Source of the DNA: Malacoraja senta
Taxonomy: Eukaryota
Direction: 5' to 3'
Length of the DNA stretch: 63,812 nt
NCBI GenBank assembly: GCA_038087875.1
Contig: CM075995.1
Coordinates: 746,001-809,812 of the forward strand
Shown: one piece after another, positions 23,137 to 48,329 of the stretch
How the letters are laid out: the number at the start of each line of letters is the position of its first letter
Numbering within the stretch: the stretch's first letter is position 1
Notes under the pieces: model-generated
The model's input: only the letters and a program-made list of their open reading frames with translations
Database searches by the model: none
What the model was told of the DNA's origin: nothing
Made by a program: the position numbers and the translations under genes

Positions 23137-23280
23137 GGCGGCACAGTAACGCAGCGGTAGAGTTGCTGCCTTGCAGCGCCAGGGACCCCGGTTCGAGTCT
23201 GACTATGGTCGCTGTCTCTATGGAGTTTGTACGTTGGCCCCGTGACCGTGTGAGTTTTCTCCGGGTGCACCAGTTTTCTC
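23137..23280 (+). mobile_element. HE1-type SINE, 5' half (3' half resumes at 25291-25455)
   Basis: SINE sequence breaks at CCAGTTTTCTC and resumes with the same 11-mer at 25291 followed by CCACACTCCAAAGAC. Confidence 0.88.
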
Positions 23281-23282
23281 TC

Positions 23283-24052
23283 ATAGATACATAGATACAT
23301 AGAAAATAGGTGCAGGAGTAGGCCATTCGGCCCTTCGAGCCTGCACCGCCATTCAATATGATCATGGCTGATCATCCAACTCAGTATCCCGTACCTGCCT
23401 TCTCTCCATACCCCCTGATCCCTTTAGCCACAAGGGCCACATCTAACTCCCTCTTAAATATAGCCAATGAACTGGCCTCAACTACCCTCTGTGGCAGAGA
23501 GTTCCAGAGATTCACCACTCTCTGTGTAAAAAAGTTTTTCCTCATCTCGGTCTTAAAGGATTTCCCCCTTATCCTTAAGCTGTGAACCCTTGTCCTGGAC
23601 TTCCCCAACATCGGGAACAATCTTCCTGCATCTAGCCTGTCCAACCCCATAAGAATTTTGTACGTTTCTATAAGATCCCCTCTCAATCTCCTAAATTCTA
23701 GCGAGTATAAGCCAAGTCTATCCAGTCTTTCTTCATATGAAAGTCCTGACATCCTAGGAATCAGTCTGGTGAACCTTCTCTGCACTCCCTCTATGGCTAT
23801 AATGTCCTTCCTCAGATTTGGAGACCAAAACTGTACGCAATACTCCAGGTGTGGTCTCACCAAGACCATGTACAACTGCAGTAGAACCTCCCTGCTCCTA
23901 TACTCAAATCCTTTTGCTATGAAAGCTAACATACCATTCGCTTTCTTCACTGCCTGCTGCACCTGCATGCCTACTTTCAATGAGTGGTGTACCATGACAC
24001 CCAGGTCTCGCTGCATCTCCCCTTTTCCTAATCGGCCACCATTTAGATAATA
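23283..24052 (-). mobile_element. Young CR1 LINE 3' fragment, part of the composite insertion
   Basis: Open 211-aa frame QRDLGV..GYGEKAGTGY*, 3' UTR and (CTATGTAT)n tail. Confidence 0.95.
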
Positions 24053-24500
24053 TTTTTTTTATCATACGCCAGGCTTTATTCCGCATGGTTGCTATTAGCT
24101 TCTTTTTCTCTTCCACTTCTTCCAAAACCTTGGCAAGTTCCCCCTCTGACAGAGAATCTTCACTGTCTGATGAATCTGATGATGAGCTGGAGGATTTGCC
24201 TTTCTTTTTTCCATTACGTCTTTCGCCCTTCTTATCACCTTTCTTGGTTCCTTGTTTTTCCTTCTTATTATCTTCATCTTTCTGCTTCTTGTTCACATTG
24301 TTTCTATTATTACCGTGGGCTGGGGTCCTTTTTGATTTCGCATTTCTTCCCTTTGGTTCACTGTCATTGTCACTTTCTTCCTTTCTGTTATTCCTATTGT
24401 TTCTTGCTTTTACCCTTGAATTTTTAGCTCCCCCTTTTTTGCTTTCCACTTCTTCTTCATCATCGTCATCTTCTTCTTCGTCACTTTCATGGCCTCTATT
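24053..24500 (-). pseudogene. tmc2: Captured fragment of a TMC2-like (transmembrane channel-like) N-terminal coding sequence
   Basis: Open frame ..GHESDEEEDDDDEEEVESKK..KKKGKSSSSSSDSSDSEDSLSEGELAKVLEEVEEKKKLIATMRNKAWRMIKK closely matches recalled TMC2 (SLSEEELAQILEQVEEKKKLIATMRSKPWPMAKK); no splice donor, fused directly to CR1. Confidence 0.82.
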
Positions 24501-25289
24501 GAGTCACGGCACCCCTTTGCCACGCAAGCCCAAGAGCTGCTCTGCACAACACCGGCTGACGCTTCTAAGGCCGCCTGGGTCAAGACGAGATGGAGAGACC
24601 AGTGGAAGTCAGCGGAACCATCTAGGCTACACCAGTACATCGATAATAATAATAATAATAATGGATTGGATTTATATAGCGCCTTTCTAATACTCAAGGC
24701 GCTTTACATCGCATTATTCATTCACTCCTCAGTCACACTCGGTGGTGGTGAGCTACTTCTGTAGCCACAGCTGCCCTGGGGCAGACTGACGGAAGCGTGG
24801 CTGCTAATCTGCGCCCACGGCCCCTCCGACCACCACCAATCACTCATACACATTCACACACATTCACACGCAGGCAAAGGTGGGTGTAGTGTCTTGCCCA
24901 AGGACACAACGACAGTATGCACTCCAAGCGGGATTCGAACCAGCTACCTTCCGGTTGCCAGCCGAACACTTAGCCCATTGCGCCATCTGTCGTCCGCATG
25001 ACCCCATGGACGTCCCTGGCCAGGACCTGCCCCGAAAGCAGTGGACAACCCTCAACCGCTTGAGGACAGGCATCGGACGCTATGCAGTAGCGATGAAGAG
25101 GTGGGGCCTCGTGGACAGCGCCTCCTGCGAGTGTGGGAACCCAACACAGACAGTGGAGCACATCGGCACCAGTTGTCCCAAACACCGGCCACCGAATGGT
25201 GAACGAGGTCTGATTGACCCGGACGATGACACGTTGGCCTGGCTCCCCTCAACGGAGCTGCAGGTCTAAAAGACATACGACAGAAGAAG
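24501..25289 (+). mobile_element. Vingi/Ingi-related LINE 3' fragment, interrupted by a SINE
   Basis: SRHPF..W..QW..YID|DPMDVPGQDLPRKQWTTLNRLRTGIGR..WG..CECGNPTQTVEHIGTSC (CCHC finger), stop, very short 3' UTR CATACGACAGAAGAAG. Confidence 0.72.
24644..24997 (-). mobile_element. tRNA-derived CORE-like SINE with L2-type 3' tail
   Basis: Reverse complement: A box TGGCGCAATGG, B box GGTTCGAATCC, core-like TGTGTCCTTGGGCAAGACAC, tail TGTAAAGCGCCTTGAG..AAAGGCGCTATATAAAT and (ATT)n. Confidence 0.85.
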
Positions 25290-26215
25290 TCCAGTTTTCT
25301 CCCACACTCCAAAGACGTACAGGTTTGTAGGTTAATTGGCTTCGGTAAAATTGCCCCTAGTGTGTAGGATAATGTTAGTGTACGGGTTGACCGCTGGTCG
25401 GCGCGGACTCAGTGGGCCGAAGAGCCTGTTTCCGCACTGAATCTCTCAAATCTAAAATCTGAAAGTATAGTTATCCCATTTTCGCATCCACTCCCTACAC
25501 ACTCGGGGCGGTTGTGCAGTGGCCAATGAACCCACAAACCAACACGTTTTTGGCATTGGGTGGAAACCGGAGCACCTGCGGGAAATCCGCCCGGACACAG
25601 GCGGCAACTCTACCGCTGCGCCACCCTGCTGCAATAGTTGAAGCAGGTACTATATCAACATTTAAAAGACCGAGGGTGATGGTGGAAGGTGTAGGAAGGA
25701 ACAGCAGATGCTGGTTTAAACCAAAGATAGACACAAAATGCTGGAGTAACACAGTTACTGTGGGACAGGCGGCGGCTCTGGAGAAAAGGAAGGTCTTCGC
25801 CATTGTTAGAGTGAGGCTAAACACAAATTGGAGGAACAGCACCTCATATTTTGCACGGGCAGCTTACAACCCAGTGGTATGAATATTGATTTCTCTAACT
25901 TCAAGTAACCCCGGCATTCCATCTCCCTCCATTCCTCCCCCACCCAATCTGCACCAGCTTCTCGTTCTCACCCAGCAAACAACTAACAATGGCCTGTTTC
26001 CTTTATCATCGTTATTTTGTTGTTGTTCTATATCTCTCTACATCATTGTCTATACCTCGTTTCCCTTTCCTGTGACTTTCAGTCTGAAGAAAGGTCTCGA
26101 CCCGAAACGTCACCCATTCCTTCTCTCCAGAGATGCTGCCTGTCCCGCTGAGTTACTCCAGCTTTTTGTGTCTATCTTTGGGTGCTGGTGGAAGGTTGTT
26201 TTTCGGACTGGAGGC

Positions 26216-33250: not shown

Positions 33251-34975
33251 TTCCCCCTTTCCAGTTTAAATGTCCCCATTTGGCTGGACCTTGCTTCGCT
33301 CTTTTTTTTCATCCTTTTTTGCGTTTCACAACTCTTGCTAAAGGCTCAGAATCTACTCTTTTGAAGAGATATCAGTATTTGCTTTATTTGTATGCTGTTC
33401 TTTCTCCACATGGCTGTAGTTTTTCTCGGCGGTCGTCAGCCCTTTGGATGTGAACGCAATTGGTTCTTCCTTGCCGTTTGGTGCCGTTTGTGAGATTACA
33501 GCTCCAAGACCATACGGCGATGCATCGGCGGCCAGCGAGATCGGCTTCGAAAGGTCATAGTGGACCAAACGCGTGAATGCATGGTCACACTCTTTGGACC
33601 AGTGCCATTCGACGTCCTGTTTTCGCAGGTTGTTCACGCACTTGCTGACCATGTTGCAATCTGTGGTAGATGACAATGCCATAGTTGATCCATCGTAGAT
33701 CAAGGCACTCATGTCAAGCTTGAAAGCTTGGATCCAGTCAATGGCGCACAGGGATGTACCGTCTTTACCAACGACGATCAGCGGCAACATCTGTGTCATA
33801 CCATTACAGGAAACGGCGACAGTGCATTTGCCTTTTGTGGGAATGGGCTGTCGTCCGTATCCAAAAAGGCGGATGTTGGCCGGTTTCAGTTTCGGCGATC
33901 CGATCCTCTCCCAGATGTCCTGACCCACTAGCGACACAGCCGCACCAGTGCCCACCTGGAACTGTAGATCGACGTTCGAGACCCGCAGCGAAATCCTCGG
34001 CTTGTCGGTGATCGTGGACACACCGAGCACTTCAATAGAAATGGTCTCCGCGATTTGGTCGACTGTGTTTTGCGCTTTCTTGCCCTTTCTCCGCTGTCCT
34101 ACGGATTGACACACTGCCTGGAGACGACCTTTTCTGTAACAGGCATAACAAACAAACGGACTCGATATACGGGCACACGATGATGATGAGCAGTCGAGCC
34201 GCACCGGTAGCAGGGTTTCGATCCTCCCCCCACAGGGGGACGGCTCTTCTGAAACTGTCCCACCTTCTCAGGATTCGCTCTGGGTCGATCAACTCGTTTC
34301 TGGCGTTGCGGACGAGTCTGACGAACTGTATGCACCTCCTGAGGGAGCTTCGACGCTGTTTCGCCGGCCATTCTGCGCAGTTCTTTACTCAGCAGCTCGG
34401 CCATCTTCGCACACTGCAGCACATTCTTCAATGAGGCATCCGATTCCTTGAGAATCACCTGCTGGATGAATGCGTGCCTGCAGCCTATGACCAGTCTATC
34501 CCACAACGCATTGTCTTGACACTTTTCGTAGCATTGAGTTATAAAATCACACGCCTTTGCCTTGGTGCGAAGTTTGGCAAGAAATTCGGTATCGATTGCC
34601 CTTCCTGTTGCACCATCCTGTAGAAATCATAGCGAGCTGCGAGGAAATTTCCACTTTCTTCGAAATGCAGCTGCAAAGCCGTTGTGATTTCAGCACATGA
34701 GGCTTCAGTTACTTCTTCTGTAAGTACATTTTGAAGCAGTGAGACATTGATGAACACAAGAGAGCCTTCTTCCTCTGGTCAGTCGTAATTGCCATACTTT
34801 CAAAATATAACTCGGCGCGCATTAAATACGACGACCACCTTTCTCACTCGGGATCGAAACGATTGAATTGCCGAGACATGTTAGTTTGAGTACACTACAG
34901 AACTAAAAAAATATATATATATTTTTTTAATTGTAAATTAGGCTCTTATCTGGGTCTTTGGATGCAATCCGAAGT

Positions 34976-45305: not shown

Positions 45306-46865
45306 CCACATATCCTACAAACCCGTACGTCTTTGGAGTGTGGGAGGAAACCGGAGCACCCGGGGAAAGGTACAAACCCTGTACAGAGAGCATTCGTAGT
45401 AGGGATCCAACCTGAATCACTCGAGCAACTCTACCGCTGCGCCACCGTGCTGCCATTGCAATAATAAACCTTGCGCTTGACATTGTGCCATACACAGATG
45501 CTAACTGCCTTCTTAATCAAACCACAAAGCTATTTCTGATCCAGACCATTACGCTCATCTCCAGTTACAAATAGAAAGTGTGGGTGATGTGATGTCAGTT
45601 CTAGACCTTTATCTCAGCGGTGGCTCAGCGGTAGAGTTGCTGCCTCACAGCGCCAGGGACCCGGGTTTGATCCTGACTACGGGTGCTGTCCGTACGGAGT
45701 TTGTACTTTCTCCCCGTGACCTGCGTGGGTTTTCTCCGGGATCTCCGGTTTCCTCCCACACTCCAAAGACGTGCAGGTTTGTGGGTTAATTGGCTTGGTA
45801 CAATTGTAAATTTTCCCCAGTGTGTAGGATAGTGTTAGCGCGCGGGGATTACTGGTCCGTGCGAAATCGATTGGCTGAAGGACTTTTGTCCGAGCTGTAT
45901 CTCTAAACTAAAATACTTGCAGCAGCATGACAGTCCAGTAAGCACGATACACATAGATAATATGTAATAATATATATTAAATAATATATATGATAAATAA
46001 TATATATATAATAAATAATATATATTATACAAAGGTAGACAAAAATGCTGGAGAAACTCAGCGGGTGAGGCTGCATGCTCAGTTTCTCCAGCATTTGCAG
46101 TTCTTTCTTAAACAAATATATTGTACATATACACACACATGCACGCACCCATATATATATATATATGTGTGCGTGTGTATAATAAACAGTAATAAATAGT
46201 AATATAAAATAAATAATAATGTATGGCAGCATGGTGGTGCAGCGGTAGAGTTGCTGCCTTACAGCGCCAGTGACCTGGGTTCAATCCTGACTACGGGTGC
46301 TGCCTGTACGGAGTTTGTACAGTCGGTAACATAGTGCAAAGGCTTGTTCACTCCTTCGTCTGTCAATCGTCAATGCACATTTTTCTAGCTGTTTTTTAAG
46401 CTACTTACTGAATTGAACCGTGCTGCAGCTGCATGTTGCAGGAAGTATGCAGCGTGGGGAGCGGGTAACGTGGGTTGTTGCGCATTGCAACTGACCTAGT
46501 CCCTGCCACATCATGCACGCTAATGCACCGAACTAACCGCTCACAAGTAACTTGGCGACAACAGTTCACAAGTGGTAGGAGCAAAAATTAGGCCATTTGG
46601 CCCATCAAGTCTACCCCACCGTTCAATCGTGGCTGACCTATCTTTCCCTCTCAACCCCATTCTCCTGCCGTACCAAGTAGGAATCTTATCAACACCTTAA
46701 ATATATCCATGGACTTGGCCTCCACAGCCGTCTGCAGCAGGAAGAGCTTCCCCACCTCCGTTTCTCGACGGGATCTTCAATGACTGAAGATTGGATGTGG
46801 ATGTGATGAGATTGGATGGGCGGTTGGCAAAGTCAAGACTGTGCTGAGCGAGGGTGGAACTAGAA

Positions 46866-47244
46866 AATAATAATAATAATAATAATAATGGATGGGATTT
46901 ATATAGCGCCTTTCCAATACTCAAGGCGCTTTACATCGCATTATTCATTCACTCCTCAGTCACACTCGGTGGTGGTGAGCTACTTCTGTAGCCACAGCTG
47001 CCCTGGGGCAGACTGATGGAAGCGTGGCTGCTAATTTGCGCCTACGGCCCCTCCGACCACCACCAATCACTGACACACATTCACACACATTCACACACAT
47101 TCATACACATTCACACGCAGGCAAAGGTGGGTGAAGTGTCTTGCCCAAGGACACAACGACAGTATGCACTCCAAGCGGGATTCGAACCGGCTACCTTCCG
47201 GTTGCCAGCCGAACACTTAGCCCATTGCGCCATCTGTCGTCTGC
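46866..47244 (-). mobile_element. tRNA-derived CORE-like SINE with L2-type tail (second copy)
   Basis: Nearly identical to 24644-24997. Confidence 0.85.
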
Positions 47245-48329
47245 ACCTTAAATATATCCATGGACTTGGCCTCCACAGCCGGACCAAATGGACGCCTGTC
47301 CCTATCCGAGATTCAAAGGAAGATATCCTGTGATTCAGTGAGTGTTTGGGGTGCACTCTGGCGAGAGCCCCAGTTGGTCACAGAGCATGAAGCAGAGGTC
47401 CTGAAGACCAGGCCACATTGGCAAAGGAAAAAGGGCTGGACAAGGGTGAAGGAAGGAAGGAAGGAAGGAACCTGTAGATGCTGGTTTATACCGAAGATAG
47501 ACTCAAAATGCTGGAGTAACCCGGCGGGACGGGCAGCATCCCTGGAGAAAAGGAATCGGTGACATTTCGTGTCGGGACCTTTCTTCGGGACAAGGGTTCT
47601 GGCCAAGATTTCTGTTCGGCAGGGTGGCGCAACTGGGTGAGAATTAAATGACATTCCTCAAGGAAGGAGATGAGAAGAACGAGAAGAAATGGTGAATTTG
47701 TGGAATTCTTTGCCACAGAAGGCAGTGGAGGCAGTCAATGGATATTTTTGAGGCAAAGATAGATAGATTCTTGATTAGTCAGGGTGTTGGTGGTTATGGG
47801 GAGAAAGGAGATGATTGGGGTTAGGAGGGAGAGATAGATCAGCCATGATTGAATGGCAGAGTAGACATAGAGTGATACAGTGTGGAAACAGGCCCTTCGG
47901 CCCAATTCGCCCACCCTGGCCAGCTTGACGGGCCGAATGGCCTAATTCTGCTCCTATCACTTATGAACTTATAGTTGGCTCCAGAAGCGTTGACATGATG
48001 AAGCTGCTCGACTTCCACCACAGAAGGGTATACTCCGGGCTTGACAAGATGTAACTCTAATCTAAACCAAACCATCGTAAGCCCCCACAAGATGAATTTG
48101 TTTCTTCGATAAAGGAAACTTCACATCCTTACCTCGTCACATCTATATTGTTTTGAATTCCACGTTCGATTTTTAATCTGCTATGCTTACACTACAATCG
48201 CAGAGTCAAAGAGTCATACAGCGCAGAAACAGGCCCTTCAGCTCAACATTCCCACGCCGACCAACATGCCCCATCCACACATGTCCCAAATTATTGTACT
48301 CTTATGCTTATGTAACATACAAACATATA

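Follow-up and report, generated by a model that had tools for sequence, protein, structure and literature searches.

The core of a 2.0-kb composite insertion that splits an old SINE in the genome of the skate Malacoraja senta very probably arose by twin priming in trans, which placed the 3' end of a Vingi-like LINE and an antisense piece of spliced TMC2 mRNA head-to-head within one target-site duplication (TSD). This core is most likely a chimera of these two RNAs, to which a CR1 element was added later. The whole sequence of events, with core twin priming first and an inner SINE and the CR1 afterwards, is proposed with moderate confidence. The insertion itself is most likely a dead, inert single-copy fossil for which a function is unlikely. 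All positions (Table 1) refer to the window, i.e., the whole stretch of 63,812 nucleotides that was analysed.

Table 1 Components of the composite insertion and of the SINE that it splits, with positions in the window.
Feature	Position	Strand	Remarks
Host SINE 5' half, tRNA-head	23137..23269	+	BLAST vs intact window copies, 78-82%
Left 11-bp TSD copy CCAGTTTTCTC	23270..23280	+	
TCATA, opening 5 bases of TMC2 antisense; probable left CR1 TSD copy	23281..23285	+	
CR1 3' end, 5'-truncated, (TCTATGTA)n tail	23286..24052	-	98-99% to 29 genome copies
9 extra bases TTTTTTTTA (T8A on plus strand)	24053..24061	+	CR1/TMC2 junction; not CR1, not exactly TMC2
Spliced TMC2 mRNA fragment, 440 bp	24062..24501	-	Two-exon match on contig C1, intron gone
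Vingi-like LINE, truncated 5' part	24502..24644	+	Up to 100% to other copies
Young tRNA-head SINE, (TTA)n tail, nested in Vingi-like LINE	24645..24997	-	
Vingi-like LINE 3' end, CCHC-type C-terminus, (AAG)n tail	24998..25289	+	
Right 11-bp TSD copy CCAGTTTTCTC	25291..25301	+	Single T (25290) separates Vingi-like tail from TSD
Host SINE 3' half	25302..25460	+	BLAST vs intact window copies

The composite block is real, well resolved and single. An earlier reading, made from the sequence alone, had described it as a 2.0-kb block that splits a SINE between perfect 11-bp repeats, and this is confirmed by the sequence and by BLAST. Both halves of the host SINE, which we take to be an HE1/V-SINE-like element, align with a short overlap to single intact copies in the window (e.g., 45626-45758 and 45744-45914). 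The same 11-mer is common to both TSD copies and differs in three intact SINE copies caught by pattern, so the duplication is younger than the SINE. The T at 25290 matches the intact SINE copies, and an A stands on the left side instead; the duplication may thus extend to 12 bp with one later change. A Pfam search of the window's own short frames gave no match. Elsewhere in the window, frames at 33356-34626 (minus strand) are similar to gag/protease sequences of LTR retroelements.

The TMC2 piece is mRNA-derived and recent. It comprises 315 bp of one exon (24187-24501) and 125 bp of the next (24062-24186), begins and stops within exons, and precisely lacks a 2747-bp GT..AG intron that is present in the parent gene on contig C1, from which it differs at two positions (24084 and 24448) in 440 bp. 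The sequence-only reading had seen an open TMC2-like coding frame between the 5' ends of the two LINEs, and the frame is indeed open, with TMC2-B of Leucoraja erinacea as the best protein match (94%; top skate TMC2 matches 93-94%); the splicing is an addition to that reading. Beyond the parent exons, the assembly matches the fragment at three places of 34-44 bp only, and with no match above 44 bp there is no DNA donor for the piece in the assembly. The window is not the TMC2 locus itself, as the gene, intron included, lies on contig C1. TMC1 is rejected as the source as well, with a single weak PDB match to a TMC1 peptide (E=0.61) and top protein matches that are named TMC2. A TMC domain is found 29 kb downstream of the parent TMC2 exons on the same strand. 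Two TMC-domain genes lie there in tandem on one strand, ~100 kb apart (G000:C1:136127936 and C1:136231058); of these, the downstream gene is the parent of the TMC2 piece.

The other partner of the core is the LINE whose 3' tail the sequence-only reading had placed on the plus strand (24502-25289), correctly so, with ~97% identity to other copies. The family has at least 1,281 candidate genome copies and is presumably related to Vingi, a label that comes from C-terminal motifs, hence 'Vingi-like'. An APE endonuclease domain (PF14529, E=5e-8) and a reverse transcriptase (RT) domain (PF00078, E=4e-32) were detected in two different broken copies (L100 and L099, respectively), no intact full-length copy was present among those examined, and in copy L098 the C-terminal stretches of 384 and 213 aa gave no Pfam match at all, RNase H included. 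The Vingi clade is described as being without RNase H after the RT (PMC13708176), and an APE plus an RT without a Pfam RNase H fits that published description.

Of 58 loci of this family that were examined, five are without 5' flank; among the other 53 copies, 35 carry a TSD of 8-14 bp no further than 20 bp from the 5' end (at most one mismatch; two pairs are duplicates, and bases that also belong to the element ends are counted in the lengths). None of the 58 loci shows a 5' inversion or a captured RNA. Inspection of the 18 loci without a near TSD led to overlooked short TSDs (L121, L122, L108), to nested inserts (L057, L066) or to cases that are unexplained. None of the 18 was recognised as another antisense capture; second-nick priming is thus not a habit of the Vingi-like family. 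In L057 and L066, the nested inserts (~690 bp; ~85-144 bp) lie between the TSD and the apparent 5' end, and nesting is common. Long frames of LTR-retroelement type (protease/RT-like) occur near two Vingi-like copies (L098:7287-9939 and L100:3-842).

At the left end of the block, the CR1 3' tail was also rightly assigned to the minus strand from the sequence, being ~99% identical to its closest copies, and the RT of its family matches RVT_1. From its sequence, this CR1 looks like an ordinary CR1 insertion, with a 5-bp TSD that overlaps the tail and with 5' extra bases. On the CR1 sense strand the TSD reads TATGA and shares four bases with the tail, and nine extra bases stand at the 5' end, as compared to nine in copy L096 and 12 in copy L078. 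L096 has the same truncation point and combines a 5-bp repeat overlapping the tail with its nine extra bases. TSDs of CR1/L2 elements have been reported to peak at 3-5 bp, with 5' extra bases being common (PMC4245944). In the skate genome, a match of at least 8 bp next to the 5' end was found in none of the 17 CR1 copies whose 5' end lies in the locus. Under a stricter rule, 3-6 bp matches were present in all 14 copies scored (of 29, the rest being without 5' end, duplicate or uncertain), and matches of at least 5 bp in 5/14 versus 24/182 shuffled pairs, which is a modest enrichment of short TSDs over the shuffled null. Because TSDs of 8-14 bp are typical of the Vingi-like family and none of these CR1 copies has one of 8 bp or more, the 11-bp TSD is ascribed to a Vingi-like cut.

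The junction of CR1, the nine bases and the A-run occurs once in the genome, and the search for the same CR1-TMC2 junction that the sequence-only reading had suggested found this locus only. A TATTA microhomology between CR1 and TMC2, considered possible in that reading, does not hold up: the TMC2 mRNA continues with AAAGAAAACTTAC, TATTA belongs to CR1 only, and the nine extra bases intervene. The T8A spacer resembles the TMC2 antisense sequence TTTTCTTTT. Three further CR1 copies (L138, L139, L140) end at the same base (window 24052), each with a short fold-back of adjacent sequence as 5' extras, and the shared stop base together with the fold-backs suggests a hot spot of RT stalling and self-priming. 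Another CR1 copy, L082, has a 22-bp match to its 3' flank that starts with TATGA and lies 265 bp upstream of its 5' end, possibly a large target duplication.

Two features that were absent from the earlier reading connect the TSD with TMC2. The TSD contains AGTTTTCT, eight bases that are complementary to the TMC2 mRNA just 3' of the fragment end, the antisense of the mRNA immediately past the fragment being GTAAGTTTTCTTTTCATACG; in this putative primer the last base is mismatched against the TMC2 mRNA and one base is lost in the T-run. Random genomic 11-mers match the TMC2 priming site equally well in 139 of ~199,300 cases (0.07%), and this level of match is reached in 0/563 windows of the upstream exon region and in 14/30,026 windows (2 sites) over 30 kb of the TMC2 gene. 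The second feature is TCATA, which is duplicated across the CR1 (23281-85 and 24062-66): it adjoins the left TSD exactly and also opens the TMC2 homology on the far side of the CR1, a coincidence with a chance of ~0.1% by hand (4^-5). CATA within it also pairs with the CR1 tail. As the sequence stands, TMC2 adjoins the left TSD for the five bases TCATA only, and then CR1 follows; with the CR1 and one TCATA taken out, the TSD leads straight into TMC2 antisense (one mismatch, one T-run base lost). On the other side, TMC2 (minus) meets the Vingi-like LINE (plus) at 24501/24502 in a blunt junction with zero microhomology; microhomology is frequent at inversion junctions made by twin priming but not obligatory.

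The inner SINE, presumably a CORE-like element, had been considered a separate insertion, and this view is substantiated by Vingi-like copies that are continuous across its site and by a 2-bp AT repeat on both sides (24643-44 and 24998-99). As the Vingi-like copies are uninterrupted there, the inner SINE was inserted later. Two extra bases are found at 24996-97, and its tRNA-like head lies at 24919-24993. Its family (window 24645-24997 and 46870-47245) is very young, with at least 2,398 candidates of which many are identical to the column majority, and judging from these sequences the tRNA-head SINE family with a (TTA)n tail is probably still active. Changes seen in no sampled copy amount to 0/767 in CR1, 3/434 in the Vingi-like LINE, 3/335 in the inner SINE and 2/440 in TMC2 (Fisher p=0.026). 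The age contrast drops to p=0.10 under a looser rule that counts changes shared with one copy. The CR1, a young element, has 0-1 private changes in 767 bp. That CR1 came last, after the inner SINE, is only a hint, since the copies compared are the closest of thousands, picked for likeness to the query.

Based on these observations, a Vingi-like endonuclease would have opened the old SINE with an 11-nt staggered cut, of which the TSD is observed and the enzyme is suggested by the TSD lengths of the family. The bottom nick would then have primed Vingi-like cDNA at the (AAG)n tail, with a stop after ~430 nt, in line with the observed structure. The top-strand overhang would have paired by eight bases with AGAAAACU in the spliced TMC2 mRNA, its terminal base being mismatched, and an RT would have extended it for ~440 nt after slipping by one base in the A-run. 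Of this step, the complementarity and the splicing are observed, and they point to the priming. The two cDNA ends, seen to be joined blunt, would have completed the core. The tRNA-SINE would have entered the Vingi-like LINE later, as the uninterrupted copies indicate, and the CR1 would have entered 5 bp inside the TMC2 piece, where its tail would have made use of CATA/UAUG pairing. The 5-bp TSD and the nine extra bases that this insertion would have left behind are observed, and its late timing is presumed. The mismatched last base of the primer, the lost base, the blunt TMC2/Vingi-like junction and the lack of 5' inversions in the 58 Vingi-like loci speak against core twin priming. Against a stepwise origin, it can be held that a later CR1 would rarely be expected to land as near as 5 bp to the TSD end (~0.5% of composite positions) and that the T8A spacer could be copied from TMC2 mRNA.

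Alternatively, the whole block could have formed in one event, which we judge to be unlikely. In that case, the Vingi-like machinery would have cut the site and primed one nick, and the second nick would have been primed on TMC2 mRNA and extended for 5 nt (TCATA) before a CR1 RNP took over via CATA/UAUG, copied 767 nt and returned to the TMC2 A-run via a T-tail. Such an event would explain why CR1 occupies the extreme edge of the block, why TCATA is repeated and why T8A is similar to TTTTCTTTT, and it would agree with the recurrence of the CR1 stop point, at which three other copies end with fold-back extras. Double template jumps (PMC2104539) and twin priming with switching (10.1101/2024.08.27.596794) have both been described. 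However, two LINE clades and two switches would be required at one break, the 5-bp TSD, the tail microhomology and the 5' extra bases are the ordinary CR1 signature, and CR1 seems to be of more recent date than the inner SINE of the Vingi-like LINE. If true, the one-event reading would describe a cross-clade insertion of three RNAs with both LINE tails outward.

A repair patch is quite unlikely. A host polymerase or the RT of another LINE could have used TMC2 mRNA, or free cDNA, as a template to extend the open end that a Vingi-like intermediate had at its second nick or, as a variant, to patch a break that arose later in this place. The blunt junction and the lack of cis inversions in the Vingi-like loci (0/58) would agree with this, and the enzyme is not readable from the sequence; the intact 11-bp TSD without any loss and a priming register that fits the overhang end disagree with it, and a later break exactly at the TSD edge is improbable.

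The model of the sequence-only reading, in which synthesis at the second nick began on the 3' tail of a CR1 RNA and the RT then jumped to TMC2 mRNA, appears very unlikely. The jump could have landed in the A-run or in a short poly(A) below an AATAAA that lies in the exon 14 nt upstream. In favour of this model, CR1 and TMC2 have a common orientation, CR1 adjoins the TSD, AATAAA does lie upstream of the A-run, and the CR1 stop point recurs. Against this, both the 8-base TSD/mRNA match (0.07%; ~1% granting the A-run) and the TCATA repeat (~0.1%) would have to be chance, the TSD end shows no pairing with the CR1 tail, and a switch of the CR1 RT via TATTA is not supported, TATTA being absent from TMC2. 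CR1 is moreover bracketed by a separate 5-bp repeat and has 5' extra bases, as other CR1 copies do. What stands of that reading is that two nicks were primed on different RNAs, with TMC2 in the place of CR1 as the RNA of the second nick, since it is TMC2 mRNA, at the fragment end, to which the end of the TSD is complementary. Of the tri-molecular retro-chimera it had envisaged, one TSD-flanked composite with mRNA-derived TMC2 is retained, and CR1 most likely was not part of the core.

Part of the window is contained in 20 of 24 listed sequencing runs, of which four were examined, all as contigs, with repeats swamping the joints. X15, which may be the assembly's own sample, agrees with the window without any difference on the left flank. 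Its contigs break off at the splice junction (24187/24189) and also at 24085, and they show both alleles at 24084 (22.2 of 41.1 parent), with a depth of 15-20 on the insert versus 27.6 on the flank. These breaks and the two alleles are as expected from a second, spliced genomic copy of TMC2. X16, a second low-depth sample with the same organism code, yielded parent TMC2 alleles only, and contigs of X1 and X2 traverse the TMC2 exons without a branch; contigs cannot show absence in any of these three. In contigs of two related organisms, the parent gene alone was seen, and no empty site was attributable to this locus. A joint of 23270-25299 in X2 is near single-copy depth and has only 21 letters on one side, too short to place it at the locus. 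A misassembly or library chimera would be consistent with the parent alleles of X16 and with the fact that no contig listed from the four runs spans a block junction, but it is extremely improbable, given that an intronless exon join cannot arise from genomic DNA reads and given the perfect TSD, the clean nesting, the X15 contig breaks and the two alleles at 24084.

For L1 of mammals, twin priming in trans is already known, mostly with small RNAs as partners and in a few cases with mRNAs. No Vingi/mRNA chimera and no report of a spliced-mRNA twin-priming capture in a shark or ray was found among the literature matches listed, which covered few subscription papers. If core twin priming by the Vingi-like LINE is true, a LINE of a non-L1 clade would be able to reverse-transcribe, from its second nick, a host mRNA that is unrelated to it, without poly(A) or 3'-tail recognition, with the priming bases remaining readable. 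Sharks and rays would gain a route to partial retrocopies hitherto not credited to Vingi, and TMC2 mRNA would presumably have been present in the germ line or early embryo. Vingi-1 is under development for gene writing, with chimeric products being a named concern (PMC13708176). The composite would be a natural example of a chimeric Vingi-type product, of limited weight as a single, probably inert insertion.

In cartilaginous fishes, 14,081 retrocopies, mostly species-specific, have been attributed to CR1 or Tx1 (10.64898/2026.06.26.734816), in a study whose main text does not mention Vingi or twin priming. The TMC2 piece resembles these in being a spliced mRNA copy and differs from them in being internally primed and without a true poly(A) end. 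The closest precedent for the chimera of three RNAs in the sequence-only reading is found in the tripartite retrogenes of Magnaporthe (WEIRD/Mg-SINE/MGL), which also unite three RNA-derived parts within one TSD (PMC2104539). Those retrogenes are ascribed to template jumps in one reverse transcription, whereas the LINE tails face outward here and CR1 has its own short TSD. As in 5' inversions in cis, a second cDNA would have been primed in the skate at the second nick, the overhang of which is long (11 nt); second-nick priming is stated to require a long overhang, and 5' inversions in assays were nearly confined to L1, with one Nimb-2_DR case (PMC4245944). Unlike in cis inversions, the second template would be a different RNA, and none of the 58 Vingi-like loci is inverted in cis.

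Antisense tRNA/L1 and 5S/L1 chimeras and 2/17 human mRNA/L1 chimeras, for which twin priming has been proposed (PMC13174262), are similar in that an antisense partner is read as twin priming. The antisense mRNA/L1 cases are without first exon or splicing features, whereas the TMC2 piece spans an exon junction, its priming bases are visible and the LINE is not an L1. The inverted snRNA/L1 chimeras (U5, U1, U2, U6) have likewise been explained by twin priming, the insertion site being complementary to the captured RNA (Doucet et al. 2015, PMC4476161). They share with the composite a cellular RNA that is antisense to a 5'-truncated LINE in one TSD, 3'-truncated and internally primed, and they differ from it in that here the LINE is Vingi-like, the captured RNA is 440 nt of a spliced protein-coding mRNA, and the host is a skate.
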